DNA of 64,000 nucleotides, from positions 128,001 to 192,000 of IMG/VR virus record IMGVR_UViG_2706796186_000001, one strand, 5' to 3'. Position 1 is the first letter of the stretch; every line of letters begins with the position of its first letter. A model generated the notes under the pieces. The model did no database searches. It was given only the letters and a program-made list of their open reading frames with translations, and was not told where the DNA came from. Of this stretch, positions 2,267 to 15,681 are shown in pieces. The position numbers and the translations under genes are program-made. The stretch comes from a virus. Lineage: Duplodnaviria; Caudoviricetes.

Positions 2267-3799
2267 ATGGGCTTATACGATCGTGATTCGCTGAGTTTAC
2301 TGTGTCGGCTCATCATGCGCGATAATCCCCAGCTTGCTGTAGCACTTGATCCGACCAAGGTGATGGTGCTCAGCGGACCCTTTACATCCGGTTTAGGTAC
2401 CAGCGGGCGTAATGCCCGCATTACCCTGAACGGACGGACTGGTTCAGGGATTGTTGGGAAAAAAGAATTCTTCTACGACCGCATCAACCTCGGTGCCTTA
2501 TTCAACGGCATTACCGTGGTGTTTATGGCGGCAGGCAGTGCCAAAACGTACGCCGATTTGTTACCGGCTCTCAATGAGCAGTATGGCATCACGTTGCAGG
2601 CTTCAGACCTCGCCAACGGTACCACCAAGCTGCCGCAAGCCTACACCCCTACACAGGTGACACTCACCATTGCCAGCACCTCACCGGCCTTTACAGGTAG
2701 CCTGACGGTCACCTGGACCCGAACGCCGGTAGGCACCTTCCCGGACTCGGGACCGGGCAGCAAGGTGATGTTGATTGGGGATATGAATGAAGGGTACTTC
2801 GGTTTAGTGTCCGAAGAGGAGCTGTTCAATGCCCCTGCATTGCATGCGAAGATAAACGAAGGCAATGCCAGCCCTGTCGGTACGGTTAATGCCATCCCAG
2901 CCACCCGCCACTGGTATAAGTTTGCCCGCGACGGCAAGATTGTTTATCTGGCCAGTTACAACCACATTAACATTCTCTGGCGGGATTTGTATACGCGTGG
3001 GGCAGTGTACGAAACCACCGTACCGCTCAACGATCATAAAGCCCCTGCCAGTTTGACACGCACGGTGCAGAAGTTAGCAATGCGGAAAGTGGAGAGCGGA
3101 CGGGAATGGTATTTGTCGCCATGTATGCCACGTCTGTCCGACCAGACCTCTTGGGACTATAGCGCCATTAACCAAACGCCCGACCCAACGGGTGACGTTG
3201 CCCGGCTGTTTATGAAAGTGGCAAATGCGGGAGGCTACGCTACCGGGGAATGGGACGTTCAGTCCATCGACGCCAACGGTTACTGGCAGTCCACGGCTTC
3301 TAAGTCTGACCCAGCAAAAGCCTTCGGCAGCAGCATGGTCGGTTGGAACCAGGGGATGTACGACATGCTCACCTTCACCGGGGGCTGGCGGCCGATGCTG
3401 GAGCTGATTGATCCGGCCGTTGTGGGTTTACCGTTAGAAAACTTCGTCGGTACCCCAGAGGGGGTTCTGCGTAAACCGTTGGTCACCATTAGTCCAGACA
3501 CCGGTGATATCCTGCTGCTGCTGTCGGACGTCGCGTGGGAAATCCAGGGGGCGTTGAAAAAGCCACAGGTCTCAATGTTACCCTCTCCACTGCTGAATGT
3601 CAGAGAGATAACGGCACGCGTAGCAGCAGAAACCGATCCGCTTGTGCTGGACTTTGTTACGGCACCTCTCCTGAGTGTACGGCAGACCAGCTGGCAAAAC
3701 GTATTGCGAGCACCGCAAGCACAACTTGTTGCGGAATACAAAGCATCGACAGTTGTTAATCTCGCGACTGCGAACGGTGAACTCGACGGCTTTAAATAA
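2267..3799 (+). CDS. virion structural protein (N-terminal domain shared with 6336/6944 genes, GPG domain, GELDGF tail)
   Basis: RBS aaggaggg. RNARITL..G.KEFFYDRINL domain; GPGSKVMLIGDMNEGYFG; WYKFARDGKIVYL; ends GELDGFK. Confidence 0.8.
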   Translation: MGLYDRDSLSLLCRLIMRDNPQLAVALDPTKVMVLSGPFTSGLGTSGRNARITLNGRTGSGIVGKKEFFYDRINLGALFNGITVVFMAAGSAKTYADLLPALNEQYGITLQASDLANGTTKLPQAYTPTQVTLTIASTSPAFTGSLTVTWTRTPVGTFPDSGPGSKVMLIGDMNEGYFGLVSEEELFNAPALHAKINEGNASPVGTVNAIPATRHWYKFARDGKIVYLASYNHINILWRDLYTRGAVYETTVPLNDHKAPASLTRTVQKLAMRKVESGREWYLSPCMPRLSDQTSWDYSAINQTPDPTGDVARLFMKVANAGGYATGEWDVQSIDANGYWQSTASKSDPAKAFGSSMVGWNQGMYDMLTFTGGWRPMLELIDPAVVGLPLENFVGTPEGVLRKPLVTISPDTGDILLLLSDVAWEIQGALKKPQVSMLPSPLLNVREITARVAAETDPLVLDFVTAPLLSVRQTSWQNVLRAPQAQLVAEYKASTVVNLATANGELDGFK

Positions 3800-4810: not shown

Positions 4811-5713
4811 ATGGGAATCACGATTAACTGGGATGACCAGACCGACCAAGCGTTAGATGCCATCGAGGTGTATCGTTCAACATCACCGATTGACATTAAC
4901 AATCCTGGTACCCCGATTGCGACACTGGCAGGAACCGCCCGCTCGTACGAAGATACTGCGGTGAAAGTGGGGAACACGTATTACTACTGTGTGGCGGTAA
5001 AGAAGGGAGAGAACCGTTCTTTCGGTGCGGTGCAGACCCAAGGCTATTATGCTAACTTAGGTCCTGGACCACAGCGGTTGTTACGCGGAGATTGGGTACG
5101 CGGCTACTTCGGTGAAATGTCTCCAGCTGACTGGGTGACCCCGGCGGATGTGGCTAACAAAATCAAGGATGCGCTCAAGTCCACCACGGGGATCACTTTC
5201 ACAACCAGCACCGGCTCTATCTGGTTCAAGTTTATCTATAAAGGGAAGATTCTCTTTATTCCGAACCTGAACCTGTTGAACAGCAGCAACTGGACAACCG
5301 GCTACAATGCTGGGTTTATTTTCGGCACTGACGATTTTGGAAACTCACCAACGGGTGTCCCCGGTGCCGTTAACCAACGTTGTGTGATTGAAATCGCTGG
5401 ACTTCAGTACATCGCTCGTGCGATTCGTCTGTCAGAAAAACCGACTACCCAATACCTGACCGACCAGCTGGACTTTAATGACAGCGAATGGAAGTCTACC
5501 TATGCACGACTGCGGGCCGACGGGTTAGCCATTACCGACCCAACAGTACAACCGCGAGTGAATGACTTGAGCAGTCTTAACAGCACAGGCAGCGCGCATA
5601 TGGCCGACGCTAACAACAGCGCCGCGGTTATTAGCAGCGCTCCTGAAACCTTGGGCAAAACCCCGAAAACTTCGGGTATTGGCTGGATGGTTGTACTCGA
5701 ACTGTTGCAATAA
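4811..5713 (+). CDS. phiKZ-like virion/tail paralogue family protein
   Basis: ITINW..IEVYRS..YEDTAVK; GPGPQRLLRGDWVRGYFG; WFKFIYKGKILFIP; DSEWK. Paralogue of 1373..2257. Confidence 0.8.
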   Translation: MGITINWDDQTDQALDAIEVYRSTSPIDINNPGTPIATLAGTARSYEDTAVKVGNTYYYCVAVKKGENRSFGAVQTQGYYANLGPGPQRLLRGDWVRGYFGEMSPADWVTPADVANKIKDALKSTTGITFTTSTGSIWFKFIYKGKILFIPNLNLLNSSNWTTGYNAGFIFGTDDFGNSPTGVPGAVNQRCVIEIAGLQYIARAIRLSEKPTTQYLTDQLDFNDSEWKSTYARLRADGLAITDPTVQPRVNDLSSLNSTGSAHMADANNSAAVISSAPETLGKTPKTSGIGWMVVLELLQ

Positions 5714-5756
5714 AAAAAGATAACCTCTATACCCCGAAGGGTATAGAGGTCTTTTC
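5712..5756. terminator. bidirectional intrinsic terminator
   Basis: Stem acctctataccc-cgaa-gggtatagaggt (UUCG loop on the minus strand), flanked by an A tract and a T tract, between convergent genes. Confidence 0.85.
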
Positions 5757-6210
5757 ATTTCTCGTCAGGACTCGTGGCACACTGCAAGAACGTCATACCC
5801 TCGCCGTTACCGGTAGTCGGGTCAACCGTAGAGTACGAGTAGGTTGCGTTCTTACCTTGGCTGCCGTGTAAGCGGTAATAGCGGGTGCCGGTAAACAGAT
5901 CAACGCTACCGTCAATTTTACCGAGCAAGTCTTTATACAGTTGCGGCGTTTGAACATCACCGCCCGGATAACTGGCGTGCCATGTGGCCCCGTTGTCGAC
6001 CACGGTAACAGAGAAGGGCATCAATTCAAGCTTACCGAGTTGCGGTTGATACTTGACAAAAGTCTCTTTTGCAGCGCTACACTGATAGACCGTGAACTCG
6101 GTCGCTGCAACTGGAATGGTGCCAAATTGGTCCGTTGTGTTCGGTGCCATTGCACAGCCCGCGGCCAACATAATCAGCGCGACGAATAACATTTGAAGTT
6201 TACGCATCAT
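5755..6210 (-). CDS. predicted lipoprotein
   Basis: Start revised to ATG 6210 (RBS aggtagg). MMRKLQMLFVALIMLAAG-C gives a basic n-region, hydrophobic h-region and lipobox. Confidence 0.7.
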   Translation of the reverse strand: MMRKLQMLFVALIMLAAGCAMAPNTTDQFGTIPVAATEFTVYQCSAAKETFVKYQPQLGKLELMPFSVTVVDNGATWHASYPGGDVQTPQLYKDLLGKIDGSVDLFTGTRYYRLHGSQGKNATYSYSTVDPTTGNGEGMTFLQCATSPDEK

Positions 6211-6335
6211 TTCCCTACCTTTCACAGTTTCGATTTTATTAGTGACAAACGTCATATAACAAGCCATGTCTGTAAGAAAGCGCGACCCTGCGCTATTTTC
6301 TATGTACCACCTGTTAACACTAAGAGGAATACCCG

Positions 6336-6872
6336 ATGGCCATCATCACTCCACAGGCGCAACTGGTTGCCCTGTTCAATGCGAAAAACGCAAGTCTGCC
6401 ACAAGCGCTGGTTGTTGCTGACGTCACCTTCGGTGCCGTTGATGTCTACACACCGGGCGACGGTGGCGATACCCGCAACACCAAACTGACCATCACCGCA
6501 GTGGCCGACAACGCCCACTTCACCGGTGAGAAAGAACTGCACTACACCCGTCTGAGTTCAGGCATCGTCGGCCCGAAAGCGGTTACCGCGGATCTGGCAG
6601 ACTGGGATACCGACGCGGAAGTGCTGGCCATCCTGAATGCGGACGTTATTGCTGCGGGTAAAACCGAAGATGCGTTTGCACTGGCTGACCTGACCATTAC
6701 GCGCGAAGGTACCGGTACCAACGAAGACCCGATGGTAATTGACGTGTCCATTAATGCGGGCCACATCAAGTACCTGCCGGGGCAGGTTGCCACGTATACC
6801 GTGACTGAAGAAATTCAGAAAACGGATCTGAGCACCACCGATGGTGAGCTGGATGGTTTTACCGTCGCGTAA
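6336..6872 (+). CDS. virion structural protein (GELDGF-tail family)
   Basis: RBS gagga. RNTKLTIT..FTGEKELHYTRL domain shared with 2267 and 6944; ends DGELDGFTVA. Confidence 0.8.
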   Translation: MAIITPQAQLVALFNAKNASLPQALVVADVTFGAVDVYTPGDGGDTRNTKLTITAVADNAHFTGEKELHYTRLSSGIVGPKAVTADLADWDTDAEVLAILNADVIAAGKTEDAFALADLTITREGTGTNEDPMVIDVSINAGHIKYLPGQVATYTVTEEIQKTDLSTTDGELDGFTVA

Positions 6873-8353: not shown

Positions 8354-8953
8354 TTATTTAGAACATACCCCTACCTTGATAGCGTAGTCGCCCATTTCAC
8401 GGTAGACGCGGTCATACCAACCGTAAGTGAACTCTTCGTTCTGTACACGCTTCTCGGAAATCTCGGTGTAGTAAGACACCTGATGGGAAGTGAGCGCGAA
8501 CATCAAACGGTTGAAGCCATCCAGACCACGGGCTTTCAGGAAACCTTCCAGCGCAGTCATAGTTGCAGGGCCGATACCACCGTCAGCAGAGATGTCGGCA
8601 TACAGTTTACCCTGACGGTTCAACACGTTCAGAATACGCTGAAGCGATTTGATGCAGTTTGCACGACCGGCGTTAATGCCGAAGTCGAACATACGGTCAG
8701 CCAAGAGCGGATTCCATGCGAGAATACGGTCAAGGCGCATACGGTCCCACCACCCTTTCTTGTAGATGTCGAGTGCCATCTGACGCGTCAGGTTACGCAT
8801 GTCGCCGGTGTAGCCGTTTTCACGCGCGGTAGCTTGTGTGATGCCGAAGTTGGTTGGGCCACCCAAGTCGTTCGGGTTGTTAACATAACCGGCTTCAATG
8901 TTAACTTTGGCCGCAATGATACCTTCCATACTCCAACGGTCTACAGTTGTCAT
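8354..8953 (-). CDS. glycoside hydrolase family 108 lysozyme (endolysin-like) with C-terminal peptidoglycan-binding domain
   Basis: EAGYVNNPNDLGGPTNFGIT catalytic motif; FDFGINAG; LQRILN..DGGIGPAT; FTYGWYDR. ATG 8953 with RBS gagga. Confidence 0.9.
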   Translation of the reverse strand: MTTVDRWSMEGIIAAKVNIEAGYVNNPNDLGGPTNFGITQATARENGYTGDMRNLTRQMALDIYKKGWWDRMRLDRILAWNPLLADRMFDFGINAGRANCIKSLQRILNVLNRQGKLYADISADGGIGPATMTALEGFLKARGLDGFNRLMFALTSHQVSYYTEISEKRVQNEEFTYGWYDRVYREMGDYAIKVGVCSK

Positions 8954-8995
8954 AACATTTCCTCTAATAAAGAACAACAGTCATAACAACCGTAA

Positions 8996-9034
8996 GAAAA
9001 AAAAGAAAAGCGACCCACCCCCGAAGGAGTGGGT
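8996..9034 (-). terminator. intrinsic terminator closing the radical SAM/Cys-rich operon
   Basis: Minus strand acccactcc-ttcg-ggggtgggt followed by a long T tract, just after the 9040 stop. Confidence 0.85.
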
Positions 9035-9039
9035 ACGAC

Positions 9040-9696
9040 TTAGGCTACACCGTTATCCGCAGCAAGCTGCTTAACTGCGGTGAAGTCTTTTTGTTCCGTG
9101 AGGATACGGATGCGTTGTTTCAACACAGACATGACCATGTGCAGGTCATTGTCACGCGTGATGATTTCCGCATAGAGGGCTTTAACGTCCTCCACCGTCC
9201 ACGGCTCGATAGGCTCGTTGTTCAGCGTCATCCAGTACATCGGGTCAACCCCGGACTGCATGTAGCTTTGCATCGATTCGCGCGACTTCTCGTCAGCTTG
9301 GAACGTCTTGTCACGGAAGGTAATGGGTGCAAACCGTTCCGCGTTATACTTGTCGTTCAGTTTCGGATAAATCGCATTGACTTCCTGATAGAGGTAGTTC
9401 TCCGTCGAGGTCAGCGCGGTACGTACGTGGTCTAAATCAATCTCCAGCACGTCAGCAATAAACTCTTTGGTTTTCTTCATCAGGAATTCAATTTCAACCG
9501 GTGACAGGTCAAAGCCTTTGAGTTTCTCGCGGGCTTTCTTGTCACTCATACCGTTAATCAGATGGTAGTGCAGTAGCAGGCAGAACCCGATACGGTTTTC
9601 CATCTGGTCTTGGTATTCTTCCACGTAGTTACCGTAGCGGTCGATACGCGTGCCCCGTTCGAAATAACGGGCTTTTATTTCGTCGTTACTAAGCAT
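9040..9696 (-). CDS. DUF4376-like protein (putative tail-fibre assembly/accessory protein)
   Basis: C-terminal half ITFRDKTFQADEKSRESM...WMTLNNEPIEPWTVEDVKAL resembles the DUF4376 pattern (F-x-x-D-x-x-S ... W-x-T-x-x-N) common beside tail-fibre genes. Confidence 0.6.
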   Translation of the reverse strand: MLSNDEIKARYFERGTRIDRYGNYVEEYQDQMENRIGFCLLLHYHLINGMSDKKAREKLKGFDLSPVEIEFLMKKTKEFIADVLEIDLDHVRTALTSTENYLYQEVNAIYPKLNDKYNAERFAPITFRDKTFQADEKSRESMQSYMQSGVDPMYWMTLNNEPIEPWTVEDVKALYAEIITRDNDLHMVMSVLKQRIRILTEQKDFTAVKQLAADNGVA

Positions 9697-10232
9697 CCGG
9701 ATTCTCCTGCAATCCCAAGGTCAACCAGCAGACCGAAGTCAATGAACTGGAAATCATTTTCCAACTCTTCGCCCCAGAGCAGTTTGGCCTCTTCTGCTTC
9801 ATCACCCATCTCTTCCAGCGTCTTACGTGCCACTTCGAATTCGTGGTAGAACGCATCGGTCAGGTGTGTACCGCGTAATGCACGCACAGTCACACCAGGG
9901 AAGTTCAGGGCCAGTCCCACAACGTTGGTTGGGTCTGCATCACCGGTAGAACGGCGCAGTACCTGCAACTTGTGTTTTGGGAACGCCACCACACGTTTTT
10001 CGAAACCGGGATTACGTTTCTCGATTTCGACAACGGACTGGTGATCGTCTTCCACGCCCTGTAAAGGCAGGATGACATTCAGGCCATAACGGTTCAACAG
10101 ACGAATGGTGTCATCGTTGAAATCTTCACCCGGCACGATCGCATGGATGTTGTACAGCTTGTGTTTGCGAATGAACGCATCGACAAGGTGAACGTTACGC
10201 CGAGTAAAATTGTGAATCAGCAATGACTTCAT
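9675..10232 (-). CDS. hypothetical protein of the radical SAM operon
   Basis: 185-aa ORF overlapping both neighbours on the same strand; no family recognised. Confidence 0.7.
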   Translation of the reverse strand: MKSLLIHNFTRRNVHLVDAFIRKHKLYNIHAIVPGEDFNDDTIRLLNRYGLNVILPLQGVEDDHQSVVEIEKRNPGFEKRVVAFPKHKLQVLRRSTGDADPTNVVGLALNFPGVTVRALRGTHLTDAFYHEFEVARKTLEEMGDEAEEAKLLWGEELENDFQFIDFGLLVDLGIAGESGCLVTTK

Positions 10233-11541
10233 TCGAGGCTCCGAGTTCTAATTTAAGTTTATCTGCTTTCATGCGGTCACGCACGCAGCTCGCACAGTAG
10301 CACATGGATTTATCGTGCAGGTCGGCGACATTCGTGGTACCGGTTTTCTGATACCAGTATTCGGACACCAACAATTTCGCGGTCGTCCAACCACACTGGC
10401 GTCGCTCAGCATGGTACTCTTTACGCGCTTCCAGCTCGCCGTCACCGTTCTCGTAAGAAGCAGCCGCACAGCTACCGCACGAGTGTTTCATCGGGCAGCC
10501 TAAGCAGGTAGACGGGTAGTTGGTGTACTGCGTCTGAATTTCGTTCAGTAGTTTGTGACCGTCAATGTTCACAATCTCACGCCCACGCAGTTCTGCTACC
10601 GCTGAACGGGTGGTTACGGTTGACATGAAGCGGTTACAGCCGTAAATCTTACGGTCGAAGCCAAGACAGGTCATGTGGGTCAGCGTACCGCAGTAAGGAC
10701 GTACACGGTCTGGGTGCAGACGGGTTGCTTCATCGTCCAGCAACTTCTGACGCCAGTCCGGGTCCCATGTCGCCATGAAGTCCAGCCCATCAGGAATGAT
10801 GTGGGTCAGGATGTTACGTGGTGACTTGTGGTAGCCGTTGTCGACCCAGTAATCGATAACGTCAATCATCTGGTTTGCGATACCCAGAGCCATATCACGC
10901 GACAGAATGTCTTCGTACGTGACGTTACCGGAGATGGTACCACCGCCCGTTTCTTTAATCAGGTGAATCATGCTCTCGCCGTAACGAGGCAGGGTCTCAC
11001 CGGTAAAGGTGGCTTTGATACCGAGTTCTGCAATACCGACAGATTTCAGGTATTGGTAGCCGCGCATCGCCTGCTCGTACGAGCCTTCACGCGAAGTGGT
11101 GAAGATACGATAGCGGTCGTGTACTTCTGGCAGACCATCGATGGACACACCAATCGACAGACGGTCTTTCCAGCGTTCAATGATTTCTTTGCTGATAGGA
11201 CGGTCGAACAAGGTGCCGTTGGTAGAAATAGAGAATACGTACTGGCGGTTGTCGCGCGCCGCTAACTCTTCGGCTGTCTCAAAGACGGCTTTCAGAATCT
11301 TCGGCTGCATAAACGGCTCACCCCCGATGATGTCGATAATGATTTCGGCATCTTCGATGTGACGGTCGCGGTCAAAACACGCATGAATAAAATCGACAGC
11401 GTCATCCACTTTGTTGTTGCGCGGATACTTACGTTCGTAGCAATACGAACAGTCGAGATTACAAGACAGGTTAGTTACGACCTGATACGTGAGTGTGGGG
11501 CGCTGTTTACGCGTCTGCGATGAAGATCGTTCTTCACTCAT
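10195..11541 (-). CDS. radical SAM/SPASM-domain peptide maturase-like enzyme
   Basis: CNLDCSYC (CxxxCxxC), GGEP, STNG, SIDG, HDRYR. C-terminal SPASM-like Cys array (YCG..C..KIYGCNRF...CLGCPMKHSCGSC...C) plus an extra CYCASC. Confidence 0.92.
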   Translation of the reverse strand: MSEERSSSQTRKQRPTLTYQVVTNLSCNLDCSYCYERKYPRNNKVDDAVDFIHACFDRDRHIEDAEIIIDIIGGEPFMQPKILKAVFETAEELAARDNRQYVFSISTNGTLFDRPISKEIIERWKDRLSIGVSIDGLPEVHDRYRIFTTSREGSYEQAMRGYQYLKSVGIAELGIKATFTGETLPRYGESMIHLIKETGGGTISGNVTYEDILSRDMALGIANQMIDVIDYWVDNGYHKSPRNILTHIIPDGLDFMATWDPDWRQKLLDDEATRLHPDRVRPYCGTLTHMTCLGFDRKIYGCNRFMSTVTTRSAVAELRGREIVNIDGHKLLNEIQTQYTNYPSTCLGCPMKHSCGSCAAASYENGDGELEARKEYHAERRQCGWTTAKLLVSEYWYQKTGTTNVADLHDKSMCYCASCVRDRMKADKLKLELGASNEVIADSQFYSA

Positions 11542-12431
11542 TTGATTACCTCATTGCGATGTTTGCGAGCGTGGATCGTGCGATTGATGTAACGGTAGGC
11601 TTCTTGCCCAATGACTTTCGCCAGCATGTTACAACCGCTATCGATTTCCATCTCGACATCCATCGTGTAGCCGATAGACGCATCGGAGTCCAGACGAACC
11701 AGACCGCTGCACGCGTTGCACGACTGCTCAAAGAACTTGCTGATGGAGAACCCAGTTGAGCCATTGTTCATGACATTCAGGCGTTCAATCTGGTCTTCCA
11801 TTTTGTTGTAGCCGAACATGAAGTTCATCACCAAATCTTGGTTCAGAGGTTTCTTCATGCGGTTGTCCAACAGCAGCGTCATGTCTTTGAAGCCGTAGTG
11901 GTGGAGTGCGCGGTGTAAGTCCAGCAGGTCAGTGTGCCAATATTTATCAGCCAACTGCTCACGAGTCACCACGGCCCACGTATGGACGTTGTTCAGCGCA
12001 GCCATCACTTCGAAGGCTTCGAATGCACCATCTTCAACGACACGCCAGAGCGGACGTTCGCTCTTTTTGTATCCATCGAACGACACACAGATACGGTTAA
12101 ACTGTTGCAGCATCGGGAGATGTTCCAGACGCATTTTCAGACCGTTCGTGTACAGCTCGTGAGTGAGATGTGGATAACGGGCTTTGACTTCGGCCAGCAA
12201 TGGCTCAATCTTCCGGGTCGCCATTAATGGCTCACCACCCGTCCAGTTCATCCCTTGTAAAGTCGGGTACTTCTCCAGTTGTTCAAACAGCGCTTCACGC
12301 TGAATTTCCCGACCAACATCTTTTGTGTCCATGTAATACGCTCCGCCGCAGAAACTACAATCCAAATTACACTTGGACGTCGTCACTATCGACAGCTCGG
12401 TAGGGGGACGTATTTGTGGTGCATCGGTCAT
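11538..12431 (-). CDS. second radical SAM enzyme (short, with a truncated Cys-containing C-terminus)
   Basis: CNLDCSFC, TGGEP, YTNG, VSFDG; C-terminal CNAC...C. Stop overlaps the next start (ATGA). Confidence 0.9.
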   Translation of the reverse strand: MTDAPQIRPPTELSIVTTSKCNLDCSFCGGAYYMDTKDVGREIQREALFEQLEKYPTLQGMNWTGGEPLMATRKIEPLLAEVKARYPHLTHELYTNGLKMRLEHLPMLQQFNRICVSFDGYKKSERPLWRVVEDGAFEAFEVMAALNNVHTWAVVTREQLADKYWHTDLLDLHRALHHYGFKDMTLLLDNRMKKPLNQDLVMNFMFGYNKMEDQIERLNVMNNGSTGFSISKFFEQSCNACSGLVRLDSDASIGYTMDVEMEIDSGCNMLAKVIGQEAYRYINRTIHARKHRNEVIK

Positions 12432-12449: not shown

Positions 12450-13328
12450 TTAATAGATCGCGAAAAGGGGGTCGTCCTCAAACTTCGCGCCCACATCCAG
12501 AAGGAAATCGGAGTGGTAGGCATCGAGTATTTGATTCAGAACAGCCTGACGGTCGTTAATCCGTTTAAGATCATCGAGTGTCACGCTTCGCGACTTGATG
12601 TTTGAAACTGCCTTTTCTTCGTCAGCTGTTAAGGAAACCTTCGACAGAAGGAAACTTACCAGCTTGCTCAGGTCAGCCTCGGTACCCGGTGCTTCACCGT
12701 AACGCAATTGAACCAAGAACTGCATCCACGGTTTGCGGATACGGCGACTGATTTCATGTGGATCGGTAATCGCTTCGAACTGCCCATCTACCGCATTCCA
12801 GCGAAACTTGTAGCTATACGCCAGTAAGTCAGCCAGACAATGGATACCGAGCGTTTCATAACCTAAGATGTGATGGTATTTTTCCACACCTTTATATTCT
12901 TCCGTGCCGGTCGGTACTACGGTGTACCAGAACGGATTAGAAGACGGGTAGTCCCAGCTCCACTCGCGACGAACCATGGGAATGACGTCCAAATCCGCAA
13001 ACGGCGTGAAGATCATTTCCAAATCCATCGAGTGGTTCAGGACTGCATCAGTAAAGAAATACTTACCGTCAATCAGTCGGCCACTGGCGTTCAGCTCGCC
13101 TTCATTAAACTTCACATGCTGAACAGTGTGCTTACCGATGGAGTAGGTATTCTCTTCGGTGTACTGCTTACGTGTAATATCCCGCCCACGTACCTTAGGC
13201 CATTCGCCTGGCAGCATCGAGATAAGGCGTACTTCGTCAGCGATGTGTGCTTTCACACTGTCGTACGACGAAATGTGTAACGGGAAATTTTGCGTCGTGC
13301 GGTACGCCAAATGGAGGTCGTTCTTCAT
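12450..13328 (-). CDS. hypothetical protein of the radical SAM operon
   Basis: 292-aa ORF with RBS aagga, between the Cys-rich genes and the radical SAM genes. Confidence 0.75.
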   Translation of the reverse strand: MKNDLHLAYRTTQNFPLHISSYDSVKAHIADEVRLISMLPGEWPKVRGRDITRKQYTEENTYSIGKHTVQHVKFNEGELNASGRLIDGKYFFTDAVLNHSMDLEMIFTPFADLDVIPMVRREWSWDYPSSNPFWYTVVPTGTEEYKGVEKYHHILGYETLGIHCLADLLAYSYKFRWNAVDGQFEAITDPHEISRRIRKPWMQFLVQLRYGEAPGTEADLSKLVSFLLSKVSLTADEEKAVSNIKSRSVTLDDLKRINDRQAVLNQILDAYHSDFLLDVGAKFEDDPLFAIY

Positions 13329-13346: not shown

Positions 13347-13556
13347 TTATCGGTTACCCGCGCCGTAACTGCACCCACCACTGCACGACCAGCTACAGCT
13401 ACCGTTGCAGTTATAATGCGAGAGTGGAAGCCCAGCAAGGTTGTTGGTCGAACTGACCGTGCCGCGTGTGGCGATATAGTTATTGGCCTGTGCGGTCGTG
13501 ATGTAGCCTTCGACGTTCTGCACCCGATCGCGAATGTTTTTCAATGAGATTGCCAT
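13347..13556 (-). CDS. short Cys-rich CXXX-repeat protein C (putative radical SAM substrate, 4 Cys)
   Basis: RBS gagga. Leader MAISLKNIRDRVQNVE; core CNGSCSWSCSGGCSYG. Confidence 0.85.
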   Translation of the reverse strand: MAISLKNIRDRVQNVEGYITTAQANNYIATRGTVSSTNNLAGLPLSHYNCNGSCSWSCSGGCSYGAGNR

Positions 13557-13577
13557 AGGTCCTCACTCGATAGAGTT

Positions 13578-13970
13578 CTATCGACTGCCTGAACAGCCAG
13601 AGCATCCCGTACAACTTGAACTACAGGAACCGGAACAGTTACCGGAGCATGTACCCGAACAACCGGAGCACCCACCCGAACACGAACCAGAACATCCTGA
13701 GCACCCACTGGTACACCCAGCAGTACAGCTCGACGAACATGAGGAACCGCAGCCCCCTGATGCCGAACCGGAACAGCCACCTGAACAGCTAGAGCAACCC
13801 CAGCTACAGGTTCCGCCGCAATCGTAATGAATACGTCCTTGGCCGCCGAATAAGTCGACGTTATTGGTTGCCTTATTACGGATGTAGGTTTGTACCCCAC
13901 CTTCCGTTTTTAAGGAGTTCGCTTCGATCACTGCAATGCGATCCGCGATGTTTCGTAAGTTGATAGCCAT
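13578..13970 (-). CDS. Cys-rich CXXX/CXX-repeat protein B (putative radical SAM substrate, 20 Cys)
   Basis: RBS gggag. Leader MAINLRNIADRIAVIE; core CGGTCSWGCSSCSGG...CSSSCTGCSGCSGSR. Confidence 0.88.
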   Translation of the reverse strand: MAINLRNIADRIAVIEANSLKTEGGVQTYIRNKATNNVDLFGGQGRIHYDCGGTCSWGCSSCSGGCSGSASGGCGSSCSSSCTAGCTSGCSGCSGSCSGGCSGCSGTCSGNCSGSCSSSCTGCSGCSGSR

Positions 13971-13979
13971 TGTTTCTCC

Positions 13980-14369
13980 CTACTGTGGACCAGAGCAACC
14001 AGAGCAACCGGTGCAGCTGGAAGAACACGACCCGGCGCAACCACCGCCACACTTACCACTGCACGAAGACGCACAGGTACCTGAGCAACCTGAACAACCC
14101 GAACACCCACCGCCGCAGTTAGAAGAACAGCTACCCACGCACGTAGAAGTACAGGTTCCTGCACAGCTAGTACAGCTTGCAGAACACCCGTTAGAACACG
14201 ACCAGCTACAACTGCCGCCACAATCCAGACGGGAGGGAGACCACCCACTGAACGAGTCCGCAGCGTTGTAAGCTTTCGATGCAACCTGCCCGTCTACACG
14301 AGCCCCGGTAGCATAGTTTGCTTCCACATTGTTAACGCGGTCGCGTATGTTTTTCATTGAAATCGCCAT
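13980..14369 (-). CDS. Cys-rich CXXX/CXX-repeat protein A (putative radical SAM substrate, 21 Cys)
   Basis: RBS aagga. Leader MAISMKNIRDRVNNVE; core CGGSCSWSCSNG...CSSSCTGCSGCSGPQ. Confidence 0.88.
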   Translation of the reverse strand: MAISMKNIRDRVNNVEANYATGARVDGQVASKAYNAADSFSGWSPSRLDCGGSCSWSCSNGCSASCTSCAGTCTSTCVGSCSSNCGGGCSGCSGCSGTCASSCSGKCGGGCAGSCSSSCTGCSGCSGPQ

Positions 14370-14385: not shown

Positions 14386-14424
14386 TAAAAAAATGAGGAC
14401 GCTGCCATAATGACAGCACCTCAT
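14386..14424 (-). terminator. intrinsic terminator-like hairpin between the fibre genes and the Cys-rich operon
   Basis: Minus strand atgagg-tgctgtca-tta-tggcagcg-t-cctcat followed by a T run; TATG lies at the loop. Confidence 0.6.
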
Positions 14425-14434
14425 GTAATAAGTG

Positions 14435-15634
14435 TTATCGTGAACCCGCTTCGGCTTGTACGTCGTCGCGAGAAGTCAGGCTGCTGTTGACGTGTACTGC
14501 CGCCTGAACCACACCGCCGTACTGCTTGTGGAGATAGTTCGGGTGTGGGTTATCTGCGTTAACGTGGTTCTGGAGATTCTGCGACAGGGTGTTAATGGAG
14601 TTCTGCAATCCAGCAACTTGCTGTTTCAGTGCATTCAGCTGACCAGAGAGATCCTGAATCTGCTGCTGCGTATCGGAACCGGCGGATTCCAAATCACTGA
14701 TGCGCTGCTTGAGCCCATTGATGACTTGGTTCTGGTCATTGATCATCTTCTGGAGTTGTAACACCAGAGAGTTCAGGTCGGCCTGTTGTAACGCCGCCTT
14801 TTGGTAGTTCAATGCCACCGAATTCAGTTGGTCATTCCACGAACCGAGTGCACTGACCACCGCATCGATACGCGCACCGAGTGCTGTGTCCGCTGCTTTC
14901 AAATTACCGATGTCAGCGAGGACAGCGTTAATGGCAGTCTGAACCGTTTGAATCAGCGCGCGAATTTCGGTTTCAGTGAGACCGTTCGCCTGATGAATAT
15001 CCAGTGCGTGAACATTACCTTTGGCATCGATGTGCGATTGTAGCGCCGCCATCATCTGGGTTTGCATGTCAGACATGGCTGCCAGAATCTGCTGGAGCTG
15101 AACTTCGTTACCGGAGTTAATCGCATCGGTCATCAACGCGAGTTGCGTAATGATGTATTCGAAACCAAACAGGTCGCCGAGGTCTTTAAAGGCCGGAGCC
15201 GCTGCAAAGGTATCCGGGACATTACGCAGGTCAGCGAAGTCAACTTTGCGGTCTTCAAGGTTGGCATCAGCCAACGCCTGTTTAATCGCAGAGATAACCG
15301 CCGACTGTGGGCCACCGACAACCTGTGCAAGACAGACGATATCGGTTGGGATAGCCGGGTTAGTGACGACCACACCCATACAGATTTCGCGGTTCTTAGC
15401 AAGCTTCATGTACGCCGGATGGATGTAAATCAGCTCGTAGTCGGTACCGCGTTTATAAATGGTGTTGGGTTGATTGGCAGGCCGCATACGGAACGTATCC
15501 GCAAAGAACGGCCCTGCTGGGAAAGCGAACGCACGGTTGACCTTCCCCCCACCTAACACAACCGGGACATTGACCGCGTTACTGGACGCAGCCCCTGTCA
15601 GGTCAAGTGGGTATTGAAATAGAATATCTGGCAT
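14435..15634 (-). CDS. short tail-fibre/baseplate-attachment-like coiled-coil protein
   Basis: N-terminal YPLDLTG..GPFF..GTDYEL domain shared with the three giant fibres; long heptad region; fibre-type HVNADNPHPNY motif. ATG 15634 with RBS gggag. Confidence 0.7.
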   Translation of the reverse strand: MPDILFQYPLDLTGAASSNAVNVPVVLGGGKVNRAFAFPAGPFFADTFRMRPANQPNTIYKRGTDYELIYIHPAYMKLAKNREICMGVVVTNPAIPTDIVCLAQVVGGPQSAVISAIKQALADANLEDRKVDFADLRNVPDTFAAAPAFKDLGDLFGFEYIITQLALMTDAINSGNEVQLQQILAAMSDMQTQMMAALQSHIDAKGNVHALDIHQANGLTETEIRALIQTVQTAINAVLADIGNLKAADTALGARIDAVVSALGSWNDQLNSVALNYQKAALQQADLNSLVLQLQKMINDQNQVINGLKQRISDLESAGSDTQQQIQDLSGQLNALKQQVAGLQNSINTLSQNLQNHVNADNPHPNYLHKQYGGVVQAAVHVNSSLTSRDDVQAEAGSR

Positions 15635-15681
15635 GGCCAAACTCCCTTAGTGAGACGTCCTTGTCTCGACGTGTTAGATGG

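Follow-up and report, generated by a model that had tools for sequence, protein, structure and literature searches.

Several described systems pair radical S-adenosylmethionine (radical SAM) enzymes with proteins or peptides that are rich in Cys or in short repeats. In the CXXX-repeat system, which was defined by comparative genomics, the radical SAM maturase is TIGR04115 and its targets are TIGR04114 (equivalent to PF27846), TIGR04117 and TIGR04118; our literature searches found no paper on the chemistry of this system. Here we analyse a 64,000-nucleotide stretch of a virus genome of the class Caudoviricetes (positions 128,001 to 192,000 of IMG/VR record IMGVR_UViG_2706796186_000001; hereafter, the window), in which three paralogous genes for small Cys-ladder proteins, termed A, B and C, lie beside genes for a 448-aa and a 297-aa radical SAM enzyme. 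We propose, giving it about an even chance of being right, that A, B and C are radical SAM-matured proteins, most likely with multiple thioether rings, that are probably associated with the tail-fibre apparatus of the phage.

PapB and CteB are thioether-forming SPASM radical SAM maturases of ranthipeptides and SCIFF (six Cys in forty-five residues) peptides, and a structure of CteB is available (5WGG). Two further systems act on proteins. The SPASM radical SAM enzyme CrpC (TIGR04463) of Methanococcus voltae was shown in 2026 to install ranthionine thioethers on the Cys-rich protein CrpA, a paralogue of which shares its 47-residue N-terminus (PMC13692751). In the His-Xaa-Ser (HXS) antiphage system, the SPASM radical SAM enzyme HxsB and the short radical SAM enzyme HxsC mature the repeat-bearing effector HxsA (PMC13128918). 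CrpA/CrpC and, for the paired enzymes, HXS are the nearest experimental precedents for the phage locus.

The window shares with the CXXX-repeat system a Cys at about every fourth residue of a Ser/Gly/Thr-rich repeat, targets encoded beside a radical SAM enzyme with C-terminal auxiliary-cluster Cys, and TIGR04115 as the top NCBIfam match of the 448-aa enzyme. Unlike that system, it is phage-borne, has a second, short radical SAM enzyme and two accessory families of its own, and has a fixed triplet of two long targets and one short one, in which a conserved N-terminal segment of 50 residues precedes a CxGxCSW entry motif. The window targets fall below the target cut-offs, and the 448-aa enzyme reaches 126.6 bits on TIGR04115 (E 1.6e-36) against a cut-off of 350. 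As judged from these comparisons, the window system would be a variant of the CXXX-repeat target kind, the closest known kind.

The Crp system (PMC13692751) resembles the phage locus in having a protein, not a short peptide, for its substrate, and in that paralogous substrates have a common N-terminus of ~47 residues followed by a C-terminal Cys-repeat region. The Crp enzyme is also a three-cluster SPASM radical SAM protein, which we count as a likeness to the 448-aa enzyme, SPASM-like by eye. Unlike the phage enzyme, however, CrpC has a recognition element (RRE) domain of the kind named after peptides made by ribosomes and modified after translation (RiPPs); the phage enzyme scores 57 bits on TIGR04463 against a cut-off of 525; the CrpA repeats are of 17 residues with C-x-x-Q/D rather than Ser/Gly CXXX units; and Crp is archaeal, not viral.

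PapB and CteB are the best characterised sequence relatives of the 448-aa enzyme and likewise have Cys-rich substrates. PapB comes second among its NCBIfam matches (125 bits, cut-off 340), CteB 5WGG is its best PDB sequence match (E 1.9e-12), and TIGR03974 gives 61.3 bits against a cut-off of 425. The CteB alignment begins at CteB residue 104, which corresponds to residue 24 of the phage enzyme; because it starts after the RRE domain of CteB, the phage enzyme, unlike CteB, has no N-terminal RRE. The CX3D/E motifs used by PapB are absent from the phage ladders, and the products of PapB and CteB differ from the phage proteins, which probably keep their N-terminal segment, in being short leader-cleaved peptides.

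With HXS the phage locus shares the pairing of a large SPASM-type radical SAM enzyme with one of ~290 residues, the presence of a small accessory protein and, presumably in the case of the phage, the action of the enzyme pair on a short-repeat protein. The hidden Markov model matches are weak (82 bits to HxsB and 32.9 to HxsC, with cut-offs of 370 and 268). The HXS repeats are His-Xaa-Ser, whereas the phage ladders contain no HxS repeats, and HXS is a bacterial defence system rather than a phage one, with an effector that is exported and processed.

The A, B and C genes and the selection acting on them

The triplet is encoded on the minus strand, as follows (open reading frame, ORF, calls for the genes; motifs as read from the sequence).

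13980..14369 (-): paralogue A, 129 aa, with a ~49-aa N-terminal segment and an 80-aa Cys ladder; 21 Cys
13578..13970 (-): paralogue B, 130 aa; 20 Cys, with Ala (ASGG unit) in place of one ladder Cys
13347..13556 (-): paralogue C, 69 aa, with the N-terminal segment and little beyond CxGxCSW; 4 Cys
14193..14222 (-): CxGxCSWxCS entry motif of A (residues 50-59)
13791-13820 (-): CxGxCSWxCS entry motif of B
13380-13409 (-): CxGxCSWxCS entry motif of C

A preliminary description of this DNA had placed the first Cys at residues 50, 51 and 50 of A, B and C, given Cys totals of 21, 20 and 4, and reported one common motif, C-x-G-x-C-S-W-x-C-S, at the start of each core; all of this agrees with the ORFs and with our counts (first Cys and Cys totals were counted by hand, and the codon positions below were likewise sorted by hand from alignments and translations). 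The N-terminal segment of ~50 residues comprises a short amphipathic helix and then an N-x-x-x-L-x-G ... Y-x-C junction. In A and B, the ladders consist of CXXX and CXX units in which nearly all residues are Cys, Ser, Gly or Thr. Most units are CXXX; in the translation of A, CXX accounts for 5 of the 20 spacers, and the Cys at every fourth residue by which TIGR04114/PF27846 targets are recognised is present. Neither Asp nor Glu occurs in the translated ladders of A, B and C.

All three proteins match phrog_6085, a family of phage proteins to which no function has been assigned (E 1e-48 for A, 1e-50 for B and 4e-29 for C), and they are the only members of their family in the 240,761-bp virus record. 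No significant match was found in Pfam or NCBIfam for A, B, C or the two accessory proteins of 292 and 185 aa; for A, B and C, Pfam, in a copy that lacks PF27846, gave no match even at E <= 10, metallothionein families included. A profile of the C family reached a best E of 0.38 against PDB sequences, which is chance level, and Atlas searches returned sub-threshold leads only. The ESM and Atlas models of A are unfolded, with a pLDDT (model confidence) value of 0.44.

Each of the three ATG codons is preceded at 4-6 nt by a Shine-Dalgarno-like site (AGGA, GGGAG and GAGG). When each gene was aligned with its orthologue in phage pEa_SNUABM_6, whose operon is 89% identical, the differences at codon positions 1/2/3 numbered 8/3/42 in A, 6/1/36 in B and 3/1/26 in C. 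Together these make 17/5/104 of 126, where an even split would give 42 each, and only 18 of the 328 codons change the residue. Replacements in the ladders are confined to Ser, Gly, Thr, Ala and Asn. Every Cys is retained, although six Cys codons of A swap TGT and TGC. A, B and C are real genes under strong purifying selection. The tandem arrays within them are short and weak (2-3 copies; Tandem Repeats Finder scores 39-63), and dispersed DNA repeat copies are 60-83% alike. Because of the third-position bias, the intact Cys codons and the weakness of the DNA repeats, we conclude that the repeat is kept at the protein level, as the preliminary description had supposed. DNA slippage was rejected as the source of the repeats, since the tandem arrays are weak and the dispersed copies only 60-83% alike.

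In the window, the C-terminal 13 residues of A and B are identical, yet 10 of the 13 codons differ, all synonymously and including one TCT/AGT serine switch; this pattern, noticed at the outset, was confirmed by reading the codons. The corresponding tail codons differ, again always synonymously, at 7 of 11 positions in SPN3US and at 12 of 15 in CR5. The last 11-15 residues of A and B are thus the same within each phage and different between phages, Cys spacing included (3,2,2 vs 3,3,3). For the window, SPN3US and CR5, recent gene conversion was considered and rejected, as most of the tail codons differ; in the distant metagenomic locus L021, where only 4 of 12 codons differ, the identical tails may be due to it. 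The tails of A and B could have co-evolved under a common constraint, either the same recognition site or mutual pairing; alternatively, old conversions could have been followed by very strong purifying selection.

Most GenBank records of related phages misrepresent these genes. Through its composition, the ladder DNA also has long ORFs outside the true frames, some of them on the opposite strand, which accounts for the errors of annotators: within 13534-14284 of the window (both strands), alternative frames and the plus strand hold ORFs of 97-119 aa. The translations of these ORFs are Pro/Glu/Gln-rich or Val/Ala-rich; they are by-products of composition and a trap for gene callers. In the SPN3US record (JN641803.1; 7001-8030 of our extract L001), annotation of A and C is missing, while gp166 (L001 7477-7812) covers B in the wrong frame; the corrected ORFs of the triplet lie on the complement strand of JN641803.1 at about 143828-144220, 143413-143817 and 143191-143397. 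Calls that are absent, in another frame or on the opposite strand were also seen in Caitlin, Asesino, phiEaH2, pEa_SNUABM_6, pEa_SNUABM_29, Proteus phage 7 and SEGD1, and EC001 is the only one of the records examined in which all three genes are annotated correctly. In SEGD1, the A orthologue (L010, about 6001-6400) matches in two pieces without a start being found, possibly owing to a frameshift or a sequencing error.

A conserved module with two radical SAM enzymes

The operon has eight genes between two terminator-like hairpins. Its other features, with the upstream neighbour, are the following.

14435..15640 (-): coiled-coil tail protein encoded upstream of A, with SPN3US gp167 as its orthologue; phrog_2163, virion structural protein
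14398..14420 (-): terminator-like hairpin just 5' of A, at the end of the preceding fibre gene
12450..13328 (-): 292-aa accessory protein, always after C; phrog_8030
11538..12431 (-): short radical SAM enzyme, 297 aa, with CxxxCxxC and three conserved C-terminal Cys, without a SPASM domain; PF04055, E 2e-11
10195..11541 (-): 448-aa radical SAM enzyme whose C-terminal Cys set is SPASM-like; PF04055, E 5e-15
9675..10232 (-): 185-aa accessory protein, part of the minimal module; phrog_7988
9040..9696 (-): DUF4376 protein, last operon gene in SPN3US-like phages and outside the minimal module; PF14301, E 7e-10
9013..9034 (-): terminator-like hairpin closing the operon

The operon is 96-97% identical to those of Salmonella phage pSal-SNUABM-04 and Erwinia phages pEa_SNUABM_42 and _43, and on this similarity the window belongs to a giant phage of the SPN3US/phiEaH2 group, near phages classed as Machinavirus. 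The order of the module is A, B, C, the 292-aa gene, the short radical SAM gene, the SPASM-like radical SAM gene, the 185-aa gene and the DUF4376 gene. The triplet occurs together with the 292-aa, short radical SAM, SPASM-like radical SAM and 185-aa genes in at least 17 phage loci, which belong to five named genera and to metagenomic lineages. The full order, DUF4376 gene included, was read in nine GenBank phages from Seoulvirus, Machinavirus and Erskinevirus and in four from Derbicusvirus and Wellingtonvirus; the seven-gene set is also found in the IMG/VR loci L016/L017 and in the distant metagenomic phages L018/L019. L021 holds the triplet, a 292-aa homologue and the short radical SAM gene before the contig ends (L018/L019 and L021 were reached through the 292-aa family). 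A tblastn search with the SPASM-like enzyme gave about 57 jumbo-phage records. The link of the ladder genes to two radical SAM genes, which had been noticed in the window by itself, is therefore one of a seven-gene module conserved over deep divergence. From the loci compared, the minimal module is A, B and C with the 292-aa protein, both radical SAM enzymes and the 185-aa protein, L018 being without DUF4376 and without a fibre neighbour.

In L016/L017, the short radical SAM gene is duplicated, and the added copy stands between A and B; in L017, an IMG/VR jumbo phage on a 225-kb contig, the two genes lie at 2393-3304 and 4896-5834. The pattern of long, long and short paralogues is kept in every locus examined. 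The number of Cys in A is 21 in all six SPN3US-like lineages counted, although the CXX/CXXX spacing and the length of the core vary. B has 20 Cys in Seoulvirus, Machinavirus, Erskinevirus and L017, 21 in Derbicusvirus and 23 in Wellingtonvirus; C has 4 in the former four and 2 in the others. The A-like and B-like proteins have 15 and 16 Cys in L018, and 19 and 21 in L021. The variable repeat number given in the preliminary description is thus a property of the paralogues and not of the orthologues, as the constancy of A illustrates. The view that the ASGG unit of the window B is a lost Cys with the register kept is supported by the B proteins of Derbicusvirus and Wellingtonvirus, which have Cys at that position.

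An alignment of 24 sequences, orthologous and paralogous, shows no change at C50, G52, C54 or S55, and at least 90% of the sequences keep W56. Residue 56, put forward in the preliminary description as a possible second modification site, is aromatic yet not always Trp, being Phe in the Seoulvirus B. For C, the residues T33, Y48, C50, C54, S55, W56, S59 and G60 are invariant in 15 relatives, and in the long paralogues of L018 and L021 the motif is shortened to C-x-x-C-S-W.

The 448-aa enzyme carries CxxxCxxC at residues 28-35 and, by eye, a C-x8-C-x9-C set, a CX2CX5CX2C set and a later Cys, all of which are kept in L017; a SPASM domain has a C-terminal motif of 7-8 Cys for two auxiliary 4Fe-4S clusters. 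The 297-aa enzyme has generic radical SAM matches only, with weak ones to HxsC and PapB. The 292-aa and 185-aa families occur only with this system, and the 185-aa protein is present even in the distant locus L018. The 292-aa family counts only 22 representatives among 1.84 billion proteins; its AlphaFold2 model (pLDDT 91) has a beta-rich N-terminal half and a helical C-terminal half, and searches gave no clear solved analogue (best E 0.12 with Foldseek against the PDB; best Z 5.6 in a wide VIA-align search, for the helical C-terminal part only). The AlphaFold2 model of the 185-aa protein (pLDDT 89) shows a generic alpha/beta fold, with only weak TIM- or Rossmann-like matches (TM 0.35-0.49).

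Published proteomics of SPN3US bears on the helper proteins. The 292-aa protein is orthologous to gp165 and the 185-aa protein to gp162. For gp162, gp164 and gp165, 0 peptide-spectrum matches (PSM) were reported in purified wild-type and tailed virions, against 2-7 PSM in crude preparations of non-permissive infections (PMC7411985 Table S2). Because of this difference, we conclude that the helper proteins are expressed but are not parts of the virion.

Just beyond the operon terminator, at 8354-8977 of the window, lies a 207-aa gene; its orthologue in pSal-SNUABM-04 carries a GH108 muramidase annotation that includes a peptidoglycan-binding domain.

The probable role of the ladder proteins and competing explanations

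In the explanation that we favour, A, B and C would be translated and would serve as substrates of the adjacent radical SAM pair; this assignment is made because the triplet and the radical SAM set are kept together and because an extra radical SAM gene lies between A and B in some phages. The SPASM-like enzyme would most likely link ladder Cys to nearby backbone or side-chain carbons, producing a string of small thioether rings, a chemistry that we propose because the enzyme is closest to CteB, PapB and the CXXX-repeat family. The short second radical SAM enzyme and the 292-aa and 185-aa proteins would be non-virion helpers. The N-terminal segment would probably be retained rather than removed, and the mature products would most likely be small, covalently stiffened parts of the tail-fibre or baseplate apparatus.

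The link to the tail apparatus is drawn from gene neighbours and from enlarged relatives. The window operon comes after three tail proteins, the nearest of which is the gp167 orthologue listed above. SPN3US gp167 is labelled 'Tail' and gave 85 PSM in wild-type virions (PMC7411985 Table S2). On the 213-kb viral contig L040, the end of a 568-aa protein consists of N-x-x-x-L-G-G-Q-x-x-x-x-Y-x-C-G-G-S-C-S-W-S-C and a long ladder. Its residues 443-531 match phrog_6085 (E 2.7e-14) at profile positions 35-121, which span the last ~15 'leader' residues before the first Cys and the ladder, while its middle part weakly matches a virion structural phrog; radical SAM genes follow. The putative tail-fibre motif N-A-x-x-L-G-G was not confirmed by Pfam or PDB searches, and its support comes from this fusion. 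At L040 4385-5100, two ORFs of 71 and 157 aa take the place of one short radical SAM gene, possibly through a frameshift, an assembly error or decay of the gene. In L042 (37 kb), a baseplate wedge gene is followed by genes for a structural protein, a 344-aa protein of unknown function, a 370-aa protein that matches phrog_6085 (E 1.5e-23), a 204-aa protein of unknown function and a phrog_1802 radical SAM enzyme. At L021 3318-3707, 5' of the triplet, a 129-aa ORF has the C-terminal motif of the gp167-like tail protein (H-P-x-Y-L ... G-G-x-V ... L-T-S-x-x-D-V), so the synteny with this fibre protein reaches a distant lineage.

These relatives also change how the N-terminal segment is seen. It had been called a leader, as of a precursor peptide, but that label probably does not fit: the junction and ladder together form the end of the virion-like 568-aa protein of L040, the 370-aa protein of L042 stands behind baseplate genes, and no peptidase, exporter, RRE or cleavage motif was detected in Pfam, NCBIfam and PHROGs scans, nor any winged helix-turn-helix or RRE match in fold searches with the 292-aa and 185-aa models. 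Given the L040 fusion, L042 and the tail genes next to the triplet in the window and L021, the segment is more likely a docking or shaft part that is retained than a leader that is cut off.

Several observations weigh against the proposal of thioether-bearing, tail-associated ladder proteins. On TIGR04114 (cut-off 20 bits), the window A scores 8.7 and B 11.5 bits, both below the cut-off, and C has no match, although relatives pass it (23.2 bits for A' of L018, 21.8 for B'' of L021 and 20.7 for the 568-aa protein of L040). Both radical SAM enzymes lie far below every curated NCBIfam cut-off, and Pfam SPASM does not match the 448-aa enzyme at E <= 0.01. Asp and Glu, which PapB uses as acceptors, are nearly absent from the ladders. 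The fibre-likeness of the N-terminal part of the L040 protein consists of one weak phrog match (E 1e-6) and repeats seen by eye, with nothing in Pfam. In L018, the module sits among nucleotidyltransferase, Acb2-like, GIY-YIG and GroEL genes, with no fibre gene or DUF4376 nearby, and the linkage to a tail module is thus not universal. We infer the modification itself, its thioether chemistry and the location of A, B and C in the virion, the last of these from synteny and from the fused and enlarged forms in L040 and L042. The SPN3US virion proteomics could not have detected A, B and C, because they were absent from the protein database that was searched.

Among other explanations, the one that survives best is a classical RiPP pathway, in which the ~50 residues are a true leader that is bound and cut off, and three cores are freed at lysis as bioactive (antimicrobial or signalling) peptides. 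A leader-like and core-like layout with several paralogous precursors beside radical SAM enzymes is seen in many RiPP clusters, the L018 module stands outside any structural module, and a feature-based Atlas search gave a radical SAM-modified, Cys-rich RiPP family as a weak lead (score 0.77). The profile and fold searches that detected no peptidase, exporter, RRE domain or cleavage motif speak against it, as do the L040 and L042 proteins, in which the junction and ladder form the C-terminal end of a larger, virion-like or baseplate-adjoining protein. Moreover, the C protein of Derbicusvirus and Wellingtonvirus is almost coreless, yet its N-terminal part is the best conserved of the family. We consider this explanation unlikely, though still worth keeping in mind.

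It is rather improbable, in our estimate, that the ladder proteins are radical SAM-modified but act outside the virion, in the infected cell or after lysis, for instance in counter-defence, as a redox or metal buffer or as an assembly aid. Such a role would suit L018, where the module has an Acb2/Tad1-hairpin-like gene among its neighbours and structural genes are absent, and a protein effector matured by paired radical SAM enzymes does exist in phage-bacterium conflict (HXS, PMC13128918); the location of A, B and C in the virion is also read from synteny and fusions. The recurrence of tail or baseplate synteny in unrelated phages (the window, L021, L040 and L042) and the fusion of the L040 ladder to a virion-like protein nevertheless argue for the tail apparatus.

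More doubtful is the idea that unmodified ladders bind metal or Fe-S through free thiolates, like a metallothionein or as a metal-stapled rod, with the radical SAM enzymes acting elsewhere or aiding cluster loading. The constant 21 Cys of A despite drifting CXX/CXXX spacing is what a fixed number of ligands would give, acceptor Asp and Glu are missing from the ladders, and the unfolded models of A would fit a protein that folds only around a cofactor. Against this, the ladders are strictly co-inherited with two radical SAM genes, including the extra one between A and B, and the enzymes are closest to thioether-forming peptide maturases; A and B lack the CC and CXC motifs typical of metallothioneins and have no Pfam match. 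Lastly, that A, B and C are artefact ORFs of a low-complexity, biased stretch with several open frames is effectively refuted by the codon-position counts, for although GenBank annotators chose alternative frames such as gp166 from the other-frame and opposite-strand ORFs over the same DNA, the third-position bias is specific to the frames given here, each ATG has a Shine-Dalgarno-like site, the Cys are conserved across five genera, and the phrog_6085 profile matches.

Within the proposal of thioether-bearing, tail-associated proteins, a more specific arrangement can be imagined, which we regard as speculative and rather unlikely in this full form: A, B and C would assemble through their N-terminal segments of equal length into a heterotrimeric mini-fibre, with the CxGxCSW motifs side by side and the ladders of A and B stapled by thioethers into a rigid, protease-proof rod at the periphery of the tail fibre or baseplate. 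If so, the synonymously encoded identical tails of A and B would reflect A/B pairing, and the structure would be an enzymatically cross-linked virion fibre, of which our literature searches found no published description.

A generic ladder pattern matched more than 588 stretches in IMG/VR, of which 115 were confirmed, and some ladders are joined to galactose-binding-like or glycine-rich domains. On other viral contigs, CXXX ladders are joined to different domains: at L053 3995-6478, an N-terminal CXXX ladder precedes two ALK/LTK-type glycine-rich domains (PF12810, E 5e-97); at L063 3272-4654, an F5/8-type-C-like domain is followed by a C-terminal ladder; and ladder matches in L045, L061, L062 and L064 lie on contigs labelled GVMAG (giant-virus metagenome-assembled genomes), so that CXXX ladders may not be limited to phages.

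Our literature searches found no paper that describes the phage ladder/radical SAM module, and no published description of radical SAM peptide chemistry in virion assembly. The known settings of such chemistry are natural-product pathways of bacteria and archaea, to which two protein substrates have been added since 2026. The conserved seven-gene module, present in about 60 sequenced giant phages, points to a covalent maturation, directed by the phage, of small Cys-ladder proteins that are probably part of the host-recognition apparatus. Among its carriers is SPN3US, a genetic model with amber mutants and virion proteomics. In most GenBank records the substrate genes are either absent or called in another frame; existing proteomics is therefore blind to their products, and the corrected ORFs make the question directly testable.

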